Shown here piece after piece: positions 1,314-64,000 of a stretch of DNA of 64,000 bases. The translations under genes were made by a program, and so were the position numbers. A model generated the notes under the pieces. The model was not told where the DNA came from and made no database searches. It saw only the letters and a list, made by a program, of their open reading frames with translations. The DNA is from a virus (lineage: Duplodnaviria > Caudoviricetes). The stretch spans positions 128,001-192,000 of IMG/VR virus record IMGVR_UViG_3300021979_000004; one strand, 5' to 3'. Position 1 is the stretch's first letter, and the number at the start of each line of letters is the position of its first letter.

Positions 1314-1584
1314 TTATGGACCTCCGAATAAATTTATTCGGTATCATCTGTTTGCGTCTCTTAGTTACAAAAGACGTATTTGGTCTGTTCTCGTTTATTA
1401 CATCAACCATTTCTTTTGTAATCTTTTCGCCATCGATACCTTTTTCAAGAAACTCAATAGCATTAAGACCATTTTTATTACAATAGTTTATGACCGCAAC
1501 AACTCGACTATCAATGTCATATGAATTGAACCCTTGCTTAAGAAGAATTCCTTTTATTTGATCATGATATTTTTTGTTTTCCAT
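1306..1584 (-). CDS. Hypothetical late protein
   Basis: ORF overlap-coupled to neighbours in the structural operon. Confidence 0.6.
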   Translation of the reverse strand: MENKKYHDQIKGILLKQGFNSYDIDSRVVAVINYCNKNGLNAIEFLEKGIDGEKITKEMVDVINENRPNTSFVTKRRKQMIPNKFIRRSIIG

Positions 1585-2798
1585 TAGAATAAACCTCCCA
1601 AGAATCCACCGACACCACCAGCAGCGCCTGTGGCTACGTTTACGCCCTGTTCTGCAACCGCACGTTCTAGTGGGTTATCAGAGTTCAAAGAGTCTTCAGC
1701 GACTTCGATAGCCTCTATCTCGGCCAATCTAATCATGCTTTGTGCAGCAGCATTGTCTAGATCAATGTCACGTCCTCCATCAACAGGTCTAGCTCCCGGT
1801 TTCAATTCATCAGCGTTTGCATATGGGTTTGAAACATCAGTATCTTGAAGACCACGGCTTAAGTTATTTAAAACTTTTTCTGCTTGGTTTAAGAAGTCGT
1901 CATATGTCATGTTTATATTAGTCATGTCAATGTGTTCATATTCTATATTACAGGTTGCATTTAACTGTTCATCATTTTCATAACTTAGTTCATCGTAAAC
2001 AAATGATTTAATCATTGGGTTTACTACTCGTATTTTCTTAGCACCATCTGCCCAGAAAAAGTATATAGATATAGCGTTAATAAACTGCTTTTCATCACGG
2101 TCACTGTTATGACCAAAATGATAATTTGTTTCAGATACTTCAAAATCATTGTAGTAATATGACATGTACTCTTTATATAAGTCCATGATACTAATTTTAT
2201 CGTCATCTTCTTTATAGTTTCTATATATGTCACCAAACCTACACGTTATTGGTGTATATATTATTCTACGTGGTACGTTACGGTGATGATTATATTGGTT
2301 TACTTTTTCCAACTCTATTTCAGCACTAGGAAATGTCATATTTTTTAGCAAGTAAGATGTACTTCTTGGGTACTTAGAACCAAGCCGTTTGCTATTAGGA
2401 ACAATGGCCGTATTGAATTCAAAGTCCACAAGAAATAAGCTTTTAGTCATTGGATGACTAGTATTATACTTATATTGTGCGTCTTGAACTACTGTGTTGA
2501 AAAATTCGTCATTACCATAAGAATATGAATCTAAGAACTTTTTCTCTTCACGCAAGGAAGCTACGTTGCCGTTGTATTGCGGCGGAACAATCTGTTCGCC
2601 CGTTCCTAGAAACGAATCGACAATACTGTTTACACCGGATAGACCAACCGCAACCAAGGCATTTTCTCTCGCACCGTCCGCACGACGTGTTGCTTGATCA
2701 GCAGCACCCTTGGCGATACCACCAAATATGTTACCACCTCTCTCTGATACTCTGGATAGAAAGTCACGATTGCCATCGTCTTGTTGAAAATATGCCAT
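1584..2798 (-). CDS. Tail-tube-fold protein (gp19/gp54/gp48-like baseplate-tube junction)
   Basis: FLVDFEF...LLKNMTFPS...PITCRFGD tube-fold pattern; Gly/Ala-rich termini. Confidence 0.6.
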   Translation of the reverse strand: MAYFQQDDGNRDFLSRVSERGGNIFGGIAKGAADQATRRADGARENALVAVGLSGVNSIVDSFLGTGEQIVPPQYNGNVASLREEKKFLDSYSYGNDEFFNTVVQDAQYKYNTSHPMTKSLFLVDFEFNTAIVPNSKRLGSKYPRSTSYLLKNMTFPSAEIELEKVNQYNHHRNVPRRIIYTPITCRFGDIYRNYKEDDDKISIMDLYKEYMSYYYNDFEVSETNYHFGHNSDRDEKQFINAISIYFFWADGAKKIRVVNPMIKSFVYDELSYENDEQLNATCNIEYEHIDMTNINMTYDDFLNQAEKVLNNLSRGLQDTDVSNPYANADELKPGARPVDGGRDIDLDNAAAQSMIRLAEIEAIEVAEDSLNSDNPLERAVAEQGVNVATGAAGGVGGFLGGLF

Positions 2799-6468: not shown

Positions 6469-6476
6469 TATAAATA
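6469..6476 (+). promoter_or_regulatory. Late promoter TATAAATA
   Basis: Exact T4 late consensus 20 nt before the AGGAG-preceded ATG at 6497. Confidence 0.75.
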
Positions 6477-51636: not shown

Positions 51637-52995
51637 ATGCATAACTTATCGTCATTTGTGGAATCGGTTTCTTCTCTTTACGAAGGTGTTTCTTTTGGAG
51701 AAAAACAGATCAATGACATCCTTTCCCGTTCAAATGATTTCAATGTTGGTATAGAATATGAAATGCGTTTTGAAGAAGGTGTAGGCGCGGAACAAGTTAT
51801 CGATATTCTAAACAAATATAATATTGAATATGATTCCGTTGTCACTGAGCATGACGATATGATGGAAATTATCACACCAAAGTTCTCTCTGTCTGAGGGA
51901 ATATCTCACATCAAATCTATGTTTTCTCTAATCAAATCCGAAGGTATTGAAGTACCTGAAATGGCAGGTATGCATATTTCTATTTCAACAAATAAGTACA
52001 GCCTTGAGGATTTCAACCATCTAAAGTTTTTAATTCTATTAGACAGTGATTACGTTCACAGTATATTTCCAGAAAGGGAACATGTTGTAAACTATAACAA
52101 GTATATAAAAACTATGTTACAGAATCTACCTAGTAGTTTGATGAGAACAAAGAAAGATGTAGAAAATATAGAATGGCGTGTAATGACTGAACTTGACACT
52201 GCAAAATATGTTACTGCGGCTGTCAAGGATTTCTTTACCAGTGACGGTAGAATAGAGCTACGCTTTATAGGCGGTGAAAACTATGATCAAATGTATGATG
52301 ATATTAAAATACAACTTTTAAGATCATTGCTCCTTATGGAGGTTGCCTATACTGATCTTTATGATAAAGTCTATTATAAAAAGCTTTCTGAGTTTCTTGA
52401 GCAAGACAGTTCAATGGTACGTTTAAAGAAACAAGCGTTTGAAATTATACGTAATGGTACTCCTAAAGAAGCATATCAACTTATAGAAAAAAATAAAACT
52501 GAGTTCATAAGCAATATTGTACCAGAAAAGATTAGAGACAAACTGGAAAATGTGATAGCAAAAGACCCTAAGCGTTCGGTTGCATATGCCAGAAACATTC
52601 TCAATTCAGAATTCAAGAAAGCTGAATCTGTGATAGCAAAAGACCCTGTGTCGGCATTGCTATACGCTATGCATTTAAGAGAGCCATTCCCCGAAGGTGA
52701 AGATGCAATAGCGACTGATGGTGCTACAGCATTACAGTATGCAAGGATGGCATTGCGCGGAAGGTTTGAAAAGGGTGAGAAAGAAATAGCCAAACATCCA
52801 CAACGTAGCTATAACTATGCCAAGCATGTATTAAAGGGTCGTTTCCCTGAAGGTGAAGACGCTATAGCTTCAGAACCAGATACCGCATTGCGGTATGCAA
52901 TCTACGTACTAGATGATCGATTTGAAAAAGGTGAGGAAATGATTAAACGTAGTGATCATTGGGAAGCCTACAAAGAAATGTATATAAAGGATTAA
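51637..52995 (+). CDS. Amidoligase (COOH-NH2 ligase / glutamine-synthetase-like fold) with C-terminal helical repeats
   Basis: VGIEYE, EIITP, AGMHIS, RIELR; about 24-aa RFxxGExxIAxxPxxAxxYA repeats; AATAAATA at 51606. Confidence 0.78.
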   Translation: MHNLSSFVESVSSLYEGVSFGEKQINDILSRSNDFNVGIEYEMRFEEGVGAEQVIDILNKYNIEYDSVVTEHDDMMEIITPKFSLSEGISHIKSMFSLIKSEGIEVPEMAGMHISISTNKYSLEDFNHLKFLILLDSDYVHSIFPEREHVVNYNKYIKTMLQNLPSSLMRTKKDVENIEWRVMTELDTAKYVTAAVKDFFTSDGRIELRFIGGENYDQMYDDIKIQLLRSLLLMEVAYTDLYDKVYYKKLSEFLEQDSSMVRLKKQAFEIIRNGTPKEAYQLIEKNKTEFISNIVPEKIRDKLENVIAKDPKRSVAYARNILNSEFKKAESVIAKDPVSALLYAMHLREPFPEGEDAIATDGATALQYARMALRGRFEKGEKEIAKHPQRSYNYAKHVLKGRFPEGEDAIASEPDTALRYAIYVLDDRFEKGEEMIKRSDHWEAYKEMYIKD

Positions 52996-55958: not shown

Positions 55959-56061
55959 TTTCGAATCTTTTTATCTCTGATGTTTTAAGTATTTTACCAA
56001 GATTCGTAATCTGTTGTCAAGCATAAATATTTCTAAACATATAGAATAATGGAGATTAACA

Positions 56062-57447
56062 ATGGCAACTTATGATTTTACAGTAAGGGCGCAAGATGAA
56101 ACTGGTGCTTTTTCCGACAGAGACTTTTCAATTCAGGTTAGAAACAACCTAGTAGATAGAATTTTAGCAATTGATTCAGCAAACGCATATGCATCAGTTG
56201 ATGGTACTACTTGGACTGAGCGTACAGGTAAGGGTGGTGATTGGTGTATAAACCTTTTAGGAAAGTGGATCGTTTGTACTTATGCATATTCTTATAATGA
56301 TGCATACAGGGCACATACCGGAAGAGACTATCGTATTTCGGATGATACTATAAACTGGACTGAAGGATTAACTTTTTGGTTAAGCAATGATGCTCCTGAG
56401 TATGATGAACAGGGAACTGAAATAACACCTGCGGGTCCGCTTTATCATCAATACTTTTACCCTACACGTGATCAATTCAGCGTTATAAACGGTAAAATAG
56501 TAATACCATCGATTGTAAATGGAAAGTTATGTATTGTTTATAGTACCGATGCAATTAATTGGTATGCATACGAAAGTGCACAGCCAAGTGATGCTTCGAA
56601 CATGATGGGTATAACGGAAAACGCATTATATGTAACTGGTGATTTATCATATTCGTCTGACTGGTATTCTAGATCACGCCACGGTCTATCAAATATCGTT
56701 ATGCATAATGGAAAATATACTATGATCAATAATCACACAAATACTTTTTATATCAGTGATAATTTAATTGATTGGGAAATGGTTAGTATAAGTAATACCT
56801 CTGACTTAGGCAGTATGAATGTAGCATTAACCAGAACAGGGGCGTCAACCGGATCATCATCTTTCGGATGTCGAGATAAATATTGGTATATATTATCAAT
56901 TAATAATGTATTATGGATGATGGGTCAGCACAATTACATGTATCATTATGAATGGAATACGACTAGTCAATGGAGATTTTATTCAGACAACTACGTGTTT
57001 TACACTACTAATTTAACTGATGTTAATTTCTCTACAAATTACTTAAGAAATAATGATAGCACTTACGATACTTCCGCAAAGTCTAATGGTTATTGGGACA
57101 CGTTTTACTTTTACCCTCCTGATAGTGCTTTCTATGATTCAGCGTCTGTTAATAGTGAACATCGTCATATTTATTATGCTAATGGTGTTATATATGCTTA
57201 CTGCGGCAAAGATATAGTTACAACTAAAACATTAACAAACAATACCAGACAAAACACTGGATTGAATGATAATGGTACAAAAGCAATAACGGGATCATGC
57301 TTCTTTGAAGGTGATATTTATTACGTTCAGAATGGCACTGATACTGGATATGGTGTTAAAAAACTAACAATAAACAATAACGAATATCGTACATCTACAG
57401 ATGTAAGCGGATTACCAACTTCAGTTACTGATATAACTTCGGTTTAA
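56062..57447 (+). CDS. Virion protein: N-terminal Ig F-G hairpin plus beta-propeller/BNR-like body
   Basis: MATYDFTVRAQD..GA.SDRDFSIQV; SxDGxxW/SDDxxxW repeats; CATAAATA at 56022. Confidence 0.6.
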   Translation: MATYDFTVRAQDETGAFSDRDFSIQVRNNLVDRILAIDSANAYASVDGTTWTERTGKGGDWCINLLGKWIVCTYAYSYNDAYRAHTGRDYRISDDTINWTEGLTFWLSNDAPEYDEQGTEITPAGPLYHQYFYPTRDQFSVINGKIVIPSIVNGKLCIVYSTDAINWYAYESAQPSDASNMMGITENALYVTGDLSYSSDWYSRSRHGLSNIVMHNGKYTMINNHTNTFYISDNLIDWEMVSISNTSDLGSMNVALTRTGASTGSSSFGCRDKYWYILSINNVLWMMGQHNYMYHYEWNTTSQWRFYSDNYVFYTTNLTDVNFSTNYLRNNDSTYDTSAKSNGYWDTFYFYPPDSAFYDSASVNSEHRHIYYANGVIYAYCGKDIVTTKTLTNNTRQNTGLNDNGTKAITGSCFFEGDIYYVQNGTDTGYGVKKLTINNNEYRTSTDVSGLPTSVTDITSV

Positions 57448-57451
57448 TATT

Positions 57452-58768
57452 ATGAGTAAGAAAGCAAATTTATCATTAGTAAGTTCTAATCTTCCATCAT
57501 ACTTAAAATTGATGGAAGATAGAGAATTTAAGTTATACGGTCGTATTCAATTCGAAGATGACCGTGCACCTTCATGGAGTACATCAGAAGGTGTTTTATC
57601 AGTATTGAACGAAGACGATACTGGAATATCAATACAGCTTTCTGCGTCACCAAGTCAATCTGCTACCACGATACGTTATGGCCTTCTTCCTTTAGCTAAT
57701 GGGACAGGCGGGTTTCTACCCTTCGGTCTAACTCTAAACTCTACTACAGGGCTTATTAGTGGTGATATGGAAGACGTAGTAAATCCTAATGAAGAGCCTA
57801 TTACATTCTTAGAGTCTGACAGGCCAACATGGAACACAAGCTCACAGACATGGTTCTACGATGAAAAGGAAACTGTTAACGTTTCCTTAAGCGCTTCTCC
57901 CAACGCGGGTAGTACACTTTCGTATCGAATCAAAGATGGTAACCTACCATGGGGGTTGTCATTATTAAGTAATGGTACTATTAGTGGTGAAACACAGGAA
58001 GTAATGTTTGGCGAAGAAGATAGATACACACAGTCTTCTCCAAAATGGAATACGCCTTTTGGCACAATAATTGAATCCGATGAATTCGAAACTATTAGTT
58101 ATCAGTTAAATGCTTCTCCATCTTCAGACAATCCTACTAGCAATATTAATTATAAAGTTGTTGGTGGTCATTTACCTTGGGGATTGAAATTAACACCCGA
58201 TGGATTGATTTCGGGAACCAACACTGAGCTTTATAGAAAAGATACTCTATTACCATTAGAAGTATTTCCGAAGCCTAAGTGGGTTACCCCTTTTGGAATG
58301 ATTAAAAAGATAAAGGAAAGTGAGTCGGTAGATATCCAACTTGAAGCTACACCACAAAAAGGTACAACTATTCAGTATAGAATTGTAGATGGTAAGTTAC
58401 CGTGGGGTATGAGTTTAACTACTAATGGAAATCTTTCTGGAACATTTGAAGAAATAATATATCCTGAGTTACCAGATATTGTGGATGAAAATGCACCAGA
58501 TATTAATGCCTCTTCTAATGTAGGAAGTTATAATAGAGAACAAACAGTAAACTATAATTTAAACATTTCACTTTATAGTGGTAGAACTCTTAAGAAGGTT
58601 TTCGTTGAGTCTGGTAGGCTACCATTGGGTGTTAAAATAGATACTAATGGAAAAGTTGTTGGTGTTCCATCATCTAACTCTGAACTAAAAACATATAGCT
58701 TTACAGTTACTGTTATCGACAGTGCTGATATGAGAAGCAGTAAAGTATTCACATTGACCGTATATTAA
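57452..58768 (+). CDS. Virion protein with five He_PIG-like Ig repeats
   Basis: PxWxT...LxASP...YxxxxGxLPWGLxLxxxGxISG repeated five times. Confidence 0.8.
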   Translation: MSKKANLSLVSSNLPSYLKLMEDREFKLYGRIQFEDDRAPSWSTSEGVLSVLNEDDTGISIQLSASPSQSATTIRYGLLPLANGTGGFLPFGLTLNSTTGLISGDMEDVVNPNEEPITFLESDRPTWNTSSQTWFYDEKETVNVSLSASPNAGSTLSYRIKDGNLPWGLSLLSNGTISGETQEVMFGEEDRYTQSSPKWNTPFGTIIESDEFETISYQLNASPSSDNPTSNINYKVVGGHLPWGLKLTPDGLISGTNTELYRKDTLLPLEVFPKPKWVTPFGMIKKIKESESVDIQLEATPQKGTTIQYRIVDGKLPWGMSLTTNGNLSGTFEEIIYPELPDIVDENAPDINASSNVGSYNREQTVNYNLNISLYSGRTLKKVFVESGRLPLGVKIDTNGKVVGVPSSNSELKTYSFTVTVIDSADMRSSKVFTLTVY

Positions 58769-58769
58769 T

Positions 58770-59255
58770 TTATACGGTCGTTTCTTCTACTGAGGCAGAA
58801 ATAGGTTGGTTTACACTTTGTCCAGAATCATAAGTTCCCAGATCAGAGTCTGTATCCCATGTTATTTCACTTTGAGTTATAACTGAATCCATAGAGAAGC
58901 TTTCAGTAACTTCATCACCATATATAGTCACCATAGTAATAGTGAAATTATAAGTTGTTGAAGTAGTATCTTCGATAAACCCAGATATAGTTCCACCAAC
59001 GTCATTGAAAACTACACCGGTAGGCAAGCTGCCAGTAAGAACAAAGTAATCTAATACGTTGCTGGTATCTGTATATTCTAGTGTTATTGCAACCTCGTCA
59101 CCACCATTAAATGATCCCAGATCACCAGAGCTTACCCATACAGGTAAATCGTATACTGGTTCTTCAGGCAAATTCTCTTCAACTACATCAGGTAGGTTCT
59201 TAGATAACCTAACGTTATAAGTTTTTCCTCTTGAATTAAATATCTTAACAGCCAT
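58770..59255 (-). CDS. Small Ig-domain virion protein
   Basis: PVWVS..DLG...GSLPTGV...GTISG...TYNFTI; TATAAATA at 59278-59285 on -. Confidence 0.7.
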   Translation of the reverse strand: MAVKIFNSRGKTYNVRLSKNLPDVVEENLPEEPVYDLPVWVSSGDLGSFNGGDEVAITLEYTDTSNVLDYFVLTGSLPTGVVFNDVGGTISGFIEDTTSTTYNFTITMVTIYGDEVTESFSMDSVITQSEITWDTDSDLGTYDSGQSVNQPISASVEETTV

Positions 59256-59314
59256 AATATCTCCGCATTTATATTAATATTTATATCAATATTACAAATA
59301 GGAAACATTATCAT

Positions 59315-59824
59315 TTATCTAATATAGCAAAACTCTCTGATAAAAAAGTCTTTGTCTTTGAAGTCACTGAATAGCATTTTCAAATGACTATGATCGAATA
59401 ATAGCACGGATGTATATTCAGTACTTTCTTCTATTTTGTTCAACATTCGTCCGTGTTTGATTTTCATAAAATTCAAATCTTGTTTTGTTCGTAACACAAC
59501 AATAGCATTTACATAAATCTGACATCCATCGTAACGACGAGGGAAGAAGGTCAGCCATCCCCACTTCCTTTTGTCTTCTCTAAATTGAAACTCAGATTTA
59601 GCTTCAACGACTTCAAAGTGATCGTGTTTAAATGTTTTAGTAATAGCCTTCTTAATATATTCATTGAAACGATCTTCGAAGTCACCTACCATTTCTTTAA
59701 GTTGTTTCTTAGTCAGCGGTGAGTGAACAGATACATGCCGTGAGAAACTATAAAAGAATGCTATCTCACCTAGATTACTGTCTTTAGCTTTATAAAACTT
59801 TCCTGTGTTAAGAGAAATTTTCAT
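59315..59824 (-). CDS. Hypothetical protein, NxxKLK motif family
   Basis: RTKQDLNFMKIKHG. Confidence 0.55.
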   Translation of the reverse strand: MKISLNTGKFYKAKDSNLGEIAFFYSFSRHVSVHSPLTKKQLKEMVGDFEDRFNEYIKKAITKTFKHDHFEVVEAKSEFQFREDKRKWGWLTFFPRRYDGCQIYVNAIVVLRTKQDLNFMKIKHGRMLNKIEESTEYTSVLLFDHSHLKMLFSDFKDKDFFIREFCYIR

Positions 59825-60397: not shown

Positions 60398-61024
60398 ATG
60401 GCTGCTAAAATTTTTAATGTTGGAGTAAAAAACATTAGAATAAGTGATCCAGTGCCATTACCAGTGGGACCGGGATTTTATTTTATAAGTTCATTAGACC
60501 TTTCACAAAGGTATCCGGCAATTGCTGACGCTGCATCGGGTGATGTACAAAAAGTTGCTTTCAATATGGGACAAAATCAATTTCAAGGTGATCCATTGGG
60601 ATTCCAAGCGTATGACACGAATTATAATGTAAACAACTGGTCAGGTCTTTATACAATTGAATCTGGTAATATTATTGTTCCTGACAATTTGGAAACAGTA
60701 ATTTACAATAAAACATACAATAGTGGTAAGTATTATTTTGAAGCAACCATTGTTGATGCGGGGTACGCGTCAGCATTGGGTATGACGACAAACTCAGGCC
60801 ATCATTCGGCGCTTACAGATGAACGTTGGGGAGTAGGTGTAGAATACATAGGTACATTTGACCCAACTGTTAAGTCGATAAGTAGTGTAGATACATGGTC
60901 AAGTGCATACAACATAATTGATAATGACATTCTTCAAATTTGGGTGGATTTTGACAACGATTTATTATGTGTTAAAAAACTTGGCACTGATATTAACGAT
61001 CATCAAAACTATACTATAGCATAA
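60398..61024 (+). CDS. Virion protein with C-terminal SPRY/concanavalin-like domain
   Basis: SGKYYFEA...LG...DILQIWVDFDNDLL; GATAAATA at 60365. Confidence 0.6.
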   Translation: MAAKIFNVGVKNIRISDPVPLPVGPGFYFISSLDLSQRYPAIADAASGDVQKVAFNMGQNQFQGDPLGFQAYDTNYNVNNWSGLYTIESGNIIVPDNLETVIYNKTYNSGKYYFEATIVDAGYASALGMTTNSGHHSALTDERWGVGVEYIGTFDPTVKSISSVDTWSSAYNIIDNDILQIWVDFDNDLLCVKKLGTDINDHQNYTIA

Positions 61025-61031
61025 GGATACT

Positions 61032-62855
61032 ATGAATAATTTAAATAATTTTTTATCATCTATCAATGAGCAAAGAATTTTAATCGAAGGTGTTAAGTTT
61101 GGTGAGAAAGAAGTTAATGATATTCTTTCTAGATCAGATGACTTTAACATTGGCATAGAATATGAAATACGTCCTAATATGGATCAACGAGTGGAACTTG
61201 AAAAGGATTTAGAAGCCCGAGGGTTGATGAAAGGTGTTGATAAAATTCTCCCTGAACACGATGAAATGACTGAGGTTATTACTAAGAAATTATCACTGAA
61301 AGAAGGTATCAGTCATATAAAAGGAATGTTTAAGTTTCTAACAGAAACAAATGTTGAAGTACCTGAAATGGCTGGAATGCATATTTCTGTATCCACTAAC
61401 AAATACAGTTTAGATGATTTTAACGCTGTAAAGTTTTTCCTTCTATTAGATTCTGATTATATTCATAGCATATTTCCAGCAAGGCAACATGTAGTTAACG
61501 TAGCACATAAGATTAAAAACAGTATTGAAATGATCGTAAGAACAATGCCTGAATATGATGAAGATAGTTTCAAAACTAATATTACATCAACCAAGATAAA
61601 AGACTTAGAAAAACGAATTGATAACGAACTACAACAGAAATATCAAACCGCAAATATTAGAGACTATAACTTACGTGATGGTCGTATTGAATTAAGGTTC
61701 TTTGGCGGCGAAGATTATCATCAATTATTTGACGATATTAAACAACAATTATTACGTTCTCTTTTTATTATGGAATTGGGTTATACTGATCTATATAAAA
61801 AAGAATACTACAAAGAAATATACAACGTAATAAAGCATATTGGTGTTGATGACAGAGACGATAAAGAAGAAATACAAAAGAGCCGTGATGAATTATTAGA
61901 TGCTATTCGCGCAGAAGATGCCGAGCAGATATTCAAAATAATGAACTATAGAAATCTTGGTTTTGATGTTCAACAAACACCACCAAAGTTATTCAAGAAA
62001 GTTCTAGGAATAATGCTTGAACATGCTAGCGATCAACGTTTATTGTTTTTCGCCCAAATGGTTCAAAAAGATATTCCTGCTATTAAAGAACGTTTTGAAG
62101 AGAAAGCAAAAGATGATCCAGAATTGGCGTCTGCGTATGCGGTATCAGTTATGGATGATCGTTTCTATGAAGTCGAAAAAGAAATACTTTCAGATAGTAG
62201 TGCAGCAGGAAGATACATCAATAAGTTCTTCTCTGATCAGCGTATGCCCAAGGACTTAGAAAAACATTTCGCTGAAAATACAGAGAGAGTCTTTCCTTGG
62301 ATGAGGTATCTTTACAAGCTGAATTCTTCAGGTGTATATAAGAAAGAAAACTTTTCTGATTTACCTAAACCTAATATGGACGCATTAATAGACGCATTGA
62401 AAATTGCTGATGATAGTAACATAGAAACTTATATTGATTTAAAAATAATAGACTACCAAAACCTTGATGACATCCTAAAAGTATATGTAGCTAGAACAGA
62501 CAAGGCAATTGACGTGCCTACTATTATTACAGTACTAAGAGATTATAAAAATTATTATGATATCGGTAGGGCAGTAATTTTAGACGAAGAATTGAGAAAA
62601 GGTCTGTTGAAAAAGTCACATAATTTCCATAGCTACTTAGGAATATTAAGCACTGAAGAGAAGCTAATATATGTTGATAGCCTAATTGAAGAATATGCTG
62701 TATTCATGGATGGTGATAAAAATAAAATTGCTGAAAGAATTGGTTCTGTGATAGAAAACCGAGAAGATGGTAATTTAATTACCGATCCTTTAAAGCCAAT
62801 TGATAAAGAATTTATAAACGCTTTTAATGAAAAATATAATACGGATATAAAATAA
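61032..62855 (+). CDS. Amidoligase paralog 2
   Basis: IGIEYE, EVITK, AGMHIS, RIELRFFGG; collinear with 51637..52995. Confidence 0.78.
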   Translation: MNNLNNFLSSINEQRILIEGVKFGEKEVNDILSRSDDFNIGIEYEIRPNMDQRVELEKDLEARGLMKGVDKILPEHDEMTEVITKKLSLKEGISHIKGMFKFLTETNVEVPEMAGMHISVSTNKYSLDDFNAVKFFLLLDSDYIHSIFPARQHVVNVAHKIKNSIEMIVRTMPEYDEDSFKTNITSTKIKDLEKRIDNELQQKYQTANIRDYNLRDGRIELRFFGGEDYHQLFDDIKQQLLRSLFIMELGYTDLYKKEYYKEIYNVIKHIGVDDRDDKEEIQKSRDELLDAIRAEDAEQIFKIMNYRNLGFDVQQTPPKLFKKVLGIMLEHASDQRLLFFAQMVQKDIPAIKERFEEKAKDDPELASAYAVSVMDDRFYEVEKEILSDSSAAGRYINKFFSDQRMPKDLEKHFAENTERVFPWMRYLYKLNSSGVYKKENFSDLPKPNMDALIDALKIADDSNIETYIDLKIIDYQNLDDILKVYVARTDKAIDVPTIITVLRDYKNYYDIGRAVILDEELRKGLLKKSHNFHSYLGILSTEEKLIYVDSLIEEYAVFMDGDKNKIAERIGSVIENREDGNLITDPLKPIDKEFINAFNEKYNTDIK

Positions 62856-64000
62856 TGCATGATTTAAACAAACTTTTAAATGAATCTTATAAGCTAGAAG
62901 AAGGCGCTAAGTTTGGGCAGAAAGAAGTAAATGATATTCTTTCTCGTTCTGGTGACTTTAACATTGGTATCGAGTATGAGTTCAATATTGATCGAGAACG
63001 TTATGATCCTGATGATGTCAGACCATTGTTACAAAAAGGTTTTGGGATAGAGCATATCTATAGTGTCGTCGGTGAACATGATGAAATGACTGAGGTCATT
63101 ACTGAAAAAATGAACTTAAAAGATGCTATCACTAACATAAAAGGAATGTTTAAATTTCTTAGTAGTGATCTAGCTGAAGTTAGAAGTTTTGCAGGATTAC
63201 ATATCTCTATTTCTTCAAATAAGTATGACATGAGTGATTTCAATAAGTCTAAGTTTATGGTTATGCTTAACTCTGAATATATCCACAAACTCTTCCCCGA
63301 GCGTAGGCATGTTAATGACGTAAGCAAATACATATCCAATGCTATGAAAAAATTTAAAAGATATAATAAAGGTAGAGCATTTACTGAAGATACTATAGAT
63401 ACTATCGAAAGTATTATTTCAGATACCTTAGATACAAAATACATAACTGCTACGCTAAAAGACTTTAATATGATGGATGGCCGCATTGAGTTGAGGTTCT
63501 TTGGCGGTGAGAACTATCAAAATATGTATGCTGATATTAAACAACAGATGTTACGTGCTTTGTTTATAATGGAATTGGCATATACTGACCTGTATCAGAA
63601 AGAGTATTACAAAGAGCTTTATAAATTTATTAAAGCTGATGATAGTTCAATAGAGTTAGATAGAAAAGATAAAAAAGATTTATTGTCAGCATTGTCTAAT
63701 GAAAATTCAAGCAGGGTATTGGATATTCTGAAAAGGGTTTCTGATAGATTAGACCCACAAGAAACCTATGAAGGTTTAGATAGTGGTATGCAAAAGAGAA
63801 TAAAGAATCTATTTAAGAAAACCCCAGATAGTGCATTTGAATTTGCAGAAGAAGTTATGCAAGGTAGGTTCGAAGAAGGTGAACCAGTAATTGCTGAGAA
63901 TGCAAGAACTTCGTATTTTTATGCTCTACTTAACCGTGAGAGATTTGATGAAGGTGAAGAAAAAATGTTTGAAGAATTAGACCTTCACGAAATAGAACAT
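62855..64000 (+). CDS. Amidoligase paralog 3, truncated by window end
   Basis: Manual translation from the TAATG overlap: MHDLNKLLNESYKLEEGAKFGQKEVNDILSRSGDFNIGIEYE...AGLHIS...RIELRFFGG; frame open to 64000; absent from the ORF track. Confidence 0.8.
   Translation, partial: MHDLNKLLNESYKLEEGAKFGQKEVNDILSRSGDFNIGIEYEFNIDRERYDPDDVRPLLQKGFGIEHIYSVVGEHDEMTEVITEKMNLKDAITNIKGMFKFLSSDLAEVRSFAGLHISISSNKYDMSDFNKSKFMVMLNSEYIHKLFPERRHVNDVSKYISNAMKKFKRYNKGRAFTEDTIDTIESIISDTLDTKYITATLKDFNMMDGRIELRFFGGENYQNMYADIKQQMLRALFIMELAYTDLYQKEYYKELYKFIKADDSSIELDRKDKKDLLSALSNENSSRVLDILKRVSDRLDPQETYEGLDSGMQKRIKNLFKKTPDSAFEFAEEVMQGRFEEGEPVIAENARTSYFYALLNRERFDEGEEKMFEELDLHEIEH

Follow-up and report, generated by a model that had tools for sequence, protein, structure and literature searches.

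The subject of this report is a cluster of three adjacent genes in the DNA of a tailed virus. The stretch analyzed (the window) is 64,000 nucleotides (nt) long, has a G+C content of ~35%, and comprises bases 128001-192000 of the 218-kb IMG/VR virus record IMGVR_UViG_3300021979_000004, which is ~73% complete. The three gene products are here called the head, the scaffold, and the anchor. The head gene (56062..57447, plus strand) encodes 461 amino acids (aa), beginning with a two-strand segment, the plug, and continuing into a beta-propeller body. The scaffold gene (57452..58768, plus strand; 438 aa) encodes a short N-terminal piece of an immunoglobulin (Ig)-like domain of the He_PIG family, four repeats without the last two strands (F-G), and a single complete He_PIG domain. 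The anchor gene (58770..59255; 161 aa) lies convergent with the scaffold gene on the minus strand, a point left unstated in the preliminary description of this locus, which had drawn attention to the broken repeats.

Where do the pieces lie within each protein? The positions given here are those of a family-specific profile introduced below. The plug, head residues 2-27 (ATYDFTVRAQDETGAFSDRDFSIQVR; 56065..56142, plus strand), corresponds to strands F-G of the He_PIG fold (profile positions 70-93). The N piece of the scaffold, residues ~6-34 (NLSLVSSNLPSYLKL..KLYGR; 57467..57553, plus strand), holds strands C-E only (positions 36-62). It is followed, on the same strand, by truncated repeats 1 (residues 39-105; 57566..57766), 2 (residues 125-180; 57824..57991), 3 (residues 197-256; 58040..58219), and 4 (residues 273-331; 58268..58444), all with strands A-E, an insertion making repeat 1 atypical, and then by complete repeat 5 (residues 345-438; 58484..58765), which has strands A-G in cis. 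The anchor, read along the minus strand, starts with a motif of ~20 aa (MAVKIFNSRGKTYNVRLSKN; 59196..59255) that is common to five other proteins of the genome and to the anchors of relatives. A complete He_PIG domain, recognized by profile match, occupies residues 38-125 (58881..59144), and a tail, residues 130-161 (EITWDTDSDLGTYDSGQSVNQPISASVEETTV; 58773..58868), supplies strands A-B only (positions 6-30) before the stop codon.

The genes are tightly packed: the scaffold starts 4 nt past the head stop, and a single base separates the scaffold and anchor stops. Putative late promoters precede both ends of the module. For the head, CATAAATA (56022..56029, plus strand), which matches the T4-type sequence TATAAATA at 7 of 8 positions, is found 33 nt upstream of the ATG, with GGAG 7 nt before the start codon. 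For the anchor, an exact copy of the T4-type late consensus TATAAATA (59278..59285, minus strand) sits 22 nt upstream of the ATG and is followed by GCGGAG. T4-type late promoters sit a short distance upstream of gene starts. Exact copies of TATAAATA are overall no commoner in the window than chance (8 seen versus 9.6 expected), and five of the eight stand 10-35 nt upstream of gene starts on the correct strand, at 6469, 10619, 22776, 29806 (minus), and 59278 (minus).

Pieces of a single Ig-like fold

Both the scaffold (111.7 bits over five stretches) and the anchor (28.3 bits) match Pfam He_PIG (PF05345) above its curated cut-off of 24 bits. The window's head has no match in Pfam, and none of the three proteins has one in PHROGs. 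A six-frame He_PIG scan of the whole record returned six matching places, all of them inside the scaffold and anchor genes. On the 96 positions of this family, repeats 2-4 end at 64-66, repeat 5 runs from 8 to 95, and the internal domain of the anchor from 15 to 93. These last two alone have whole-profile coverage; the anchor tail, the scaffold N piece, and the plug each cover about one-third.

The family-specific profile of the complete domain has 94 positions and was built from the last repeats of 14 scaffolds. On it, repeats 1-4 of the window scaffold extend from ~9-18 to 60-75 and repeat 5 from 1 to 93, in agreement with the preliminary description, in which repeat 5 alone possessed the final hairpin. 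Its account of the chain ends fared equally well. The head was said to begin with exactly that missing hairpin, fused to a propeller-like body; residues 2-25 indeed fall on positions 70-93 (strands F-G), and an AlphaFold2 (AF2) model gives a propeller. The anchor was said to close with only the first strands of a repeat, and it ends with residues 134-158 on positions 6-30 (strands A-B). The scaffold, finally, was said to open with only the middle strands, and its N terminus maps to positions 36-62 (strands C-E), clearly so in 11 relatives and, for the window copy, via the joined alignment described next. The same division recurs when all loci are mapped together: complete domains take positions 1-94, truncated repeats ~3-62 (46 instances), anchor tails 3-30, scaffold N termini 36-62, and head N termini 70-93 (15 instances).

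Do the three terminal pieces add up to one domain? A joined query was assembled from the last 32 anchor residues, scaffold residues 2-38, and head residues 2-30. In the order anchor-scaffold-head it gives one alignment over positions ~3-93, with 31-46 bits, in 11 of 14 trios, the same range in which natural complete anchor domains score (22-50 bits). In the orders anchor-head-scaffold and head-scaffold-anchor, the alignment splits into separate pieces. By these alignments, the terminal fragments of the three chains amount to collinear thirds of a single domain, with no gap and no duplication, because the join in the correct order aligns as one domain and the wrong orders do not. The split layout is confirmed as far beyond chance and real at the sequence level. 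A comparison of class-specific residues among the joint pieces, the truncated repeats, and the complete domains did not separate the classes.

The module also contains a direct repeat (57528-57544 and 58765-58781; TTAAGTTATACGGTCGT and TTAATTTATACGGTCGT) in which 16 of 17 bases are identical. One copy lies inside the scaffold N piece and the other across the scaffold and anchor stops. An equally good direct repeat arises in 3.5% of shuffles of the 4.3-kb region, and protein-level conservation is absent in two related loci (L001 and L002); the repeat could be a rearrangement scar or chance.

Related loci, the plug, and the truncated repeats

Relatives of the trio were gathered via the scaffold (L001-L005) and via the head (L007-L014; contigs of 119-480 kb) and were found in two cultured giant phages, Agrobacterium phage Atu_ph07 and Sinorhizobium phage Phosso. 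A blastn search of the trio region against cultured phages had no match, although tblastn with the head did give relatives. Scaffold identity to the window is 59% in L001, 52% in L002, and ~30% in L003/L004 and L005; the scaffold protein occurs also on a 351-kb contig. The source of the window is a giant tailed phage, because relatives were found for the trio and because a tail-tube-like gene is present, namely, one at 1584-2798 (minus strand) for a 404-aa protein with weak PHROG matches to tail tube proteins (E ~1e-5).

Every intact related locus examined has the anchor/scaffold/head trio with identical break points, unchanged even in trios just ~25-30% identical to the window's. Anchors end 2-7 residues past strand B, scaffolds start 5-10 residues ahead of strand C, and heads start M-x-x-F/Y-x-F-T-V-R-A-x-D. 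In Atu_ph07, the GenBank start of the scaffold, gp240, is 25 codons too far downstream (L015:4907-4981, MF403008.1); when translation is taken from an upstream ATG that overlaps the gp239 stop, the protein regains the usual IKYSLINGELPEGL start and with it the C-strand piece conserved at the N terminus (MTTLPSPYPIKYSLINGELPEGL). Most gene sets are 1:1:1 (anchor:scaffold:head). What does vary is the arrangement. Most clades have anchor, scaffold, and head in that order on a single strand, often as two tandem trios, and the anchor stop and scaffold start overlap by 1-8 nt in 11 of 12 codirectional pairs. The clade of the window, with L001 and L002, instead has the head first, the scaffold second, and the anchor last and inverted. 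The anchor-scaffold break looks as if a single gene had split long ago in the B-C loop. Because order and strand vary among clades, any joining of the pieces would act after translation.

Such a stop/start overlap might point to covalent joining of the chains, whether by frameshift or read-through at the overlap or by protein trans-splicing. However, the window, L001, and L002 have the anchor on the opposite strand and the head upstream of the scaffold; strand B of the anchor has only 4-7 residues after it and strand C of the scaffold 5-10 before it, too few to accommodate intein halves; and no Pfam intein match is present in the head, scaffold, or anchor. Covalent joining is thus extremely improbable, and translational fusion and intein splicing are rejected on these three grounds. 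The convergent genes of the window, with coding pieces cut at the gene ends, might equally recall a DNA-inversion switch of the Mu G segment or shufflon type that swaps fibre ends. Yet there are no significant inverted repeats at the gene borders (the best are of 15-16 nt, inside coding repeats), the arrangement is fixed in L001 and L002 while other clades have all three genes codirectional, and no recombinase gene is among the neighbours. We give such a switch almost no credence and reject it on the absent flanking inverted repeats, the absent nearby recombinase, and the fixed arrangement.

The plug stands out within the head. A head profile search over 1.84 billion representatives gave 19,200 matches, 389 of them below 1e-30, many being unrelated long multi-propeller proteins. 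The plug census drew on the best 150 head relatives, among them 73 short (<500 aa) representatives of clusters at 50% identity. The strict plug pattern begins at residue 2-4 in 71 of the 73; the 72nd is one substitution off, and the last is cut at its N terminus. The head family thus comprises at least 70 clusters that start with the plug. Among 69 cluster representatives, mean pairwise identity is 68% in the plug (residues 2-28), 42% in the first blade, and 22% in the rest, and F6, R9, A10, F22, and N28 are invariant. Within a single set of 11 trios, plugs in trans share 67% identity, versus 34-35% for the cis F-G hairpins of scaffold and anchor and 18-28% for the linkers. A search of the 218-kb record for other open reading frames (ORFs) starting with the plug, suggested in the preliminary description, returned the head as the sole case.

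Could the pieces simply be relics of gene fission? The plug would then pack on its own propeller or bind elsewhere, the truncated repeats would be stable alone, and the proteins would associate by other surfaces or not at all. The AF2 monomers, in which the plug forms a hairpin and the truncated repeats reach a pLDDT (the model's per-residue confidence) of 65-87, are compatible with this, as is the dispensability of the module in one close relative (see below). Relics would be expected to decay, though, and the plug is instead the most conserved segment of the head (68% versus 22%), a difference that disfavours a relic. The break points are kept across ~25-30% identical trios and through changes of gene order and strand, and two- and three-strand Ig fragments at chain ends have, going by the Ig fold, no obvious stability alone. 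We regard the absence of complementation between chains as unlikely. The conservation of the plug would instead fit a strand pair matched to sockets on other chains.

What, then, of the four truncated repeats inside the scaffold? Their number is four in the window and three to ~seven in relatives. In the AF2 scaffold monomer, the pLDDT is ~90 in repeat 5, 65-87 in the truncated repeats, 54-62 in the N piece, and <50 in the linkers. The linkers between truncated repeats are 15-20 aa long (median, 18 aa) and contain 13.7% proline, versus 6.5% overall; the one after the N piece has only 10-12 aa. With its low pLDDT and short linker, the N piece hardly looks able to stand on its own. The cis F-G region spans 32 profile positions, and by length and composition the linkers appear too short and proline rich to supply two strands in cis. 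The preliminary description had named completion of the repeats by their own linkers as an outcome that would tell against it. That possibility is set aside only in part: AF2 leaves the linkers disordered, so that they do not complete the truncated repeats in the model, but a weak ELKxPGxxVEVPxLPxPxW-like motif recurs in them and might add one strand in cis.

The preliminary description had proposed that up to four heads dock on the scaffold. In this reading, besides the joint between the three chains, each truncated repeat would take the F-G plug of a further head, producing a branched, many-headed fibre. Repeats 1-4 all lack profile positions 63-94; the linkers, which are the least conserved segments, are too short for a 24-aa hairpin; model confidence is lower in the truncated repeats than in the complete one; the plug is conserved well beyond the cis F-G hairpins, as would be expected if it had to fit several sockets; and the only lineage with longer scaffolds (523 aa in Phosso and 667 aa in L014) has two heads. 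Yet there is mostly one head gene per scaffold, the linker motif could complete a repeat by one strand in cis, the AF2 confidence of the truncated repeats alone is still fair, and the link between long scaffolds and two heads comes from one lineage. We consider occupation of every truncated repeat possible but doubtful.

Two further observations concern the surroundings of the trio. Distant relatives carry, divergently upstream of it, a conserved protein of ~670-990 aa with He_PIG repeats (L003:1543-4431, L008:1306-3315, L012:432-3317, and L013:1665-3869, all minus strand, as well as cut or extended ORFs at L009:493-2637 and L011:1-2965, also minus). Its C-terminal ...KYYKFPPGDK segment is present in L003 and L012 and cut short in L008, L009, and L013. 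The protein might belong to this appendage as well; nothing comparable lies beside the trio in the window. The window module is itself flanked on either side by genes for three paralogous proteins (51637-52995, 61032-62855, and 62855-64000, plus strand), which have in common an N-terminal Amidoligase_2-like region (weak Pfam match for the first one, E 2e-4) and repetitive helical C termini.

A proposed three-chain joint and its probable place on the virion

Evidence that the trio belongs to a phage particle comes from Atu_ph07, whose gp239, gp240, and gp241 were each detected in purified virions by electrospray ionization tandem mass spectrometry (PMC6102473, Table S5). The anchor gp239 (15.8 kDa) was represented by 3 unique peptides with 40.6% coverage, the scaffold gp240 by 2, and the head gp241 by 6 (PMC6102473). 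Virion association is supported rather than proven, because the particles were purified with polyethylene glycol (PEG) only and the list of 131 proteins includes probable contaminants (PMC6102473). Atu_ph07 bears capsid-associated "hairy whiskers." The putative late-type promoter upstream of the anchor gene was also counted toward a virion role. Gel bands of gp239 and gp241 above their own size were considered as sodium dodecyl sulfate (SDS)-stable complexes, a suggestion that was rejected since all 13 bands also contain smeared major capsid protein.

How might the anchor hold on to the particle? As mentioned, its N-terminal motif of ~20 aa is not its own. The motif (MAVKIFN..VRLS or MGI/VK/RFYG..) is common to six differently bodied proteins of the genome: the anchor, an SPRY-like protein (GKYYFEATIVDAG), a BamB/PQQ_2-like propeller (E 1e-7), a protein with an Lcl_C domain (E 5e-12), and two of unknown type. 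Besides the anchor copy, the window has one at 60398-60457 (plus strand), and four more proteins lie outside it (G000:C1 73735-74379, plus; 79384-80016, minus; 85066-86448, plus; and 119527-120225, plus; loci L017-L020). The anchors of distant relatives retain it (MGIRF..GRLRF). The motif has the appearance of a common docking tag by which binding modules could be interchanged, and in the anchor it is likely to serve for attachment to the particle.

At the other end, the head resembles known propellers in a general way. Its AF2 monomer (predicted template modelling score [pTM], 0.73) starts with the plug as a hairpin (E2-11/E17-26), followed by the beta-propeller. Foldseek finds only generic six-bladed propellers for the model (TM, 0.3-0.5), and the sequence has a weak match to the GH74 xyloglucanase 2cn3. 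Pfam BNR_2 is matched by 5 of 19 head relatives (best E, 1.4e-7), the window's head being unmatched, and SxDGxxW motifs are visible in relatives. Going by its fold family, the BNR-type propeller is likely to be the ligand-binding end, probably for glycans.

Our favoured reading, which we hold to be moderately likely, is that three chains rebuild one Ig domain noncovalently, thereby fastening the spacer and the binding head to an anchor on the virion. The appendage would belong to the virion of a giant myophage and be held at one three-way joint, a single He_PIG Ig-like beta-sandwich to which the anchor would give strands A-B from its C-terminal tail, the scaffold strands C-E from its N terminus, and the head strands F-G from its N-terminal hairpin. 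As in a standard Ig sandwich, F would lie beside the C strand of the scaffold and G beside the A strand of the anchor, so that the plug would clamp anchor and scaffold together. The N-terminal motif of the anchor would fix the assembly to the particle, the remaining Ig-like repeats of the scaffold would act as a spacer or arm, and the propeller would form the distal end for binding, probably of glycans. The actual binding of the pieces, their stoichiometry, the site on the virion, and the ligand are the parts of this model that we infer. For the preliminary description, which had already proposed that complementary pieces of one Ig fold dock in trans, this means that the complementarity stands and that the proposed docking gains strong comparative support from the kept break points, the freedom of gene order, the conservation of the plug, and the detection of the Atu_ph07 proteins in virions.

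Several observations weigh against a joint of this kind. (i) In AF2, the plug is already a hairpin on the monomeric head (pLDDT ~71-77). (ii) The window's own scaffold N piece is degenerate and matches the profile only within the joined alignment. (iii) No unsplit "Rosetta stone," in which a complete Ig domain would run straight into this propeller, is found in the best 150 head relatives, whose long matches are multi-propeller giants or ordinary He_PIG arrays. (iv) Among solved structures in the Protein Data Bank (PDB), the head and scaffold match only generic propellers and SraP modules. (v) The PEG-only purification of Atu_ph07 and the probable contaminants, as mentioned, bear on the virion evidence. 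(vi) The module is lost, and so is not essential, in the close relative L006, whose head is 83% identical over residues 1-192. There, a natural deletion that starts in the middle of the head gene has removed everything up to and including the gene beyond the anchor: the head ORF ends at 194 aa (L006:5001-6265), its remainder is missing together with the scaffold, the anchor, and the homologue of 59315-59824, and the flanking genes are retained. The module is therefore dispensable, as is usual for decoration fibres.

A broader scheme can be imagined in which the scaffold is an array of open Ig sockets and short terminal beta-hairpins are universal plugs, together a modular, noncovalent "click" system that builds branched virion fibres with mixed heads. 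The F-G plug would then fill the joint and every truncated repeat, giving five heads here, and MAVKIFN..VRLS would be a second plug type, making propeller, lectin-like, and SPRY-like bodies interchangeable on the particle. Taken as a whole, we offer this scheme as speculation and think it rather unlikely.

If the three-chain joint proves true, what would it mean? It would be, as far as the literature found goes, the first natural Ig-like domain made from three polypeptides, and a phage parallel, free of any chaperone, to donor-strand complementation in pili. The joint would account for the way in which giant phages like Atu_ph07 carry binding heads on their "whiskers," assign a function to three widespread "hypothetical" virion proteins, and provide a small, genetically encoded pair of plug (~26 aa) and socket for protein assembly. 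Atu_ph07 and Phosso, both cultured, would allow a direct test of the proposal.

Comparison with known strand-sharing systems

The nearest solved relative of the complete repeat is found in the cadherin-like modules of the SraP adhesin (PDB 4m03; E 2e-9 over profile positions 282-361 of the scaffold). The SraP modules are of the same domain family as repeat 5, but they are complete and in one chain; truncated or split forms like those of the trio are absent from the solved structures found. Literature searches on phages, for a split Ig domain and for He_PIG, returned nothing relevant, and, as far as found, no described structure or paper covers an Ig domain split over three chains.

Sharing of strands between chains is best known from chaperone-usher pili, in which the N-terminal extension of another subunit completes an Ig-like fold to give a very stable, noncovalent fibre. 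The trio would be alike: judged from sequence, its acceptors lack the last two strands, and the head N terminus carries exactly these. The differences are that pilus subunits lack one strand (G), whereas in the trio one partner would donate F-G and a third chain A-B, and that the pilus is a homopolymer, whereas the trio consists of three different proteins in a phage particle. The phage assembles in the cytoplasm, unlike pili, with their periplasmic chaperone and outer membrane usher, and chaperone or usher genes are found neither in the module nor beside it in any locus examined.

A second likeness is offered by the tips of type IV pili, where a C-terminal beta-strand of PilC/PilY1 completes minor pilins of the PilK family (PMC12918778). 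There, too, a terminal adhesin is fixed to a fibre by a donated terminal strand, and a fusion of strand and acceptor in related systems indicates that the break point can move (PMC12918778). PilY1-PilK, however, involves a single C-terminal strand, a pilin fold, and a cellular filament and is backed by genetics and biochemistry, whereas the trio is a proposal with an N-terminal two-strand hairpin and an Ig domain of three chains.

Among phages, capsid decorations of the T4 Hoc type come closest in general design: they are described as an Ig-like string projecting from the virion with a separate particle-binding module, nonessential and probably serving adhesion (PMC10385173). Hoc is a single chain of complete domains, whereas in the trio three gene products would share one domain, and the string would end in a propeller.

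Overall, the trio would work in principle like donor-strand complementation while being a member of neither pilus system, because chaperone and usher are absent, the fold and setting are others, two strands would be donated, and three chains rather than two would share the domain. Its layout suggests a virion fibre locked together by the sharing of beta-strands between chains.

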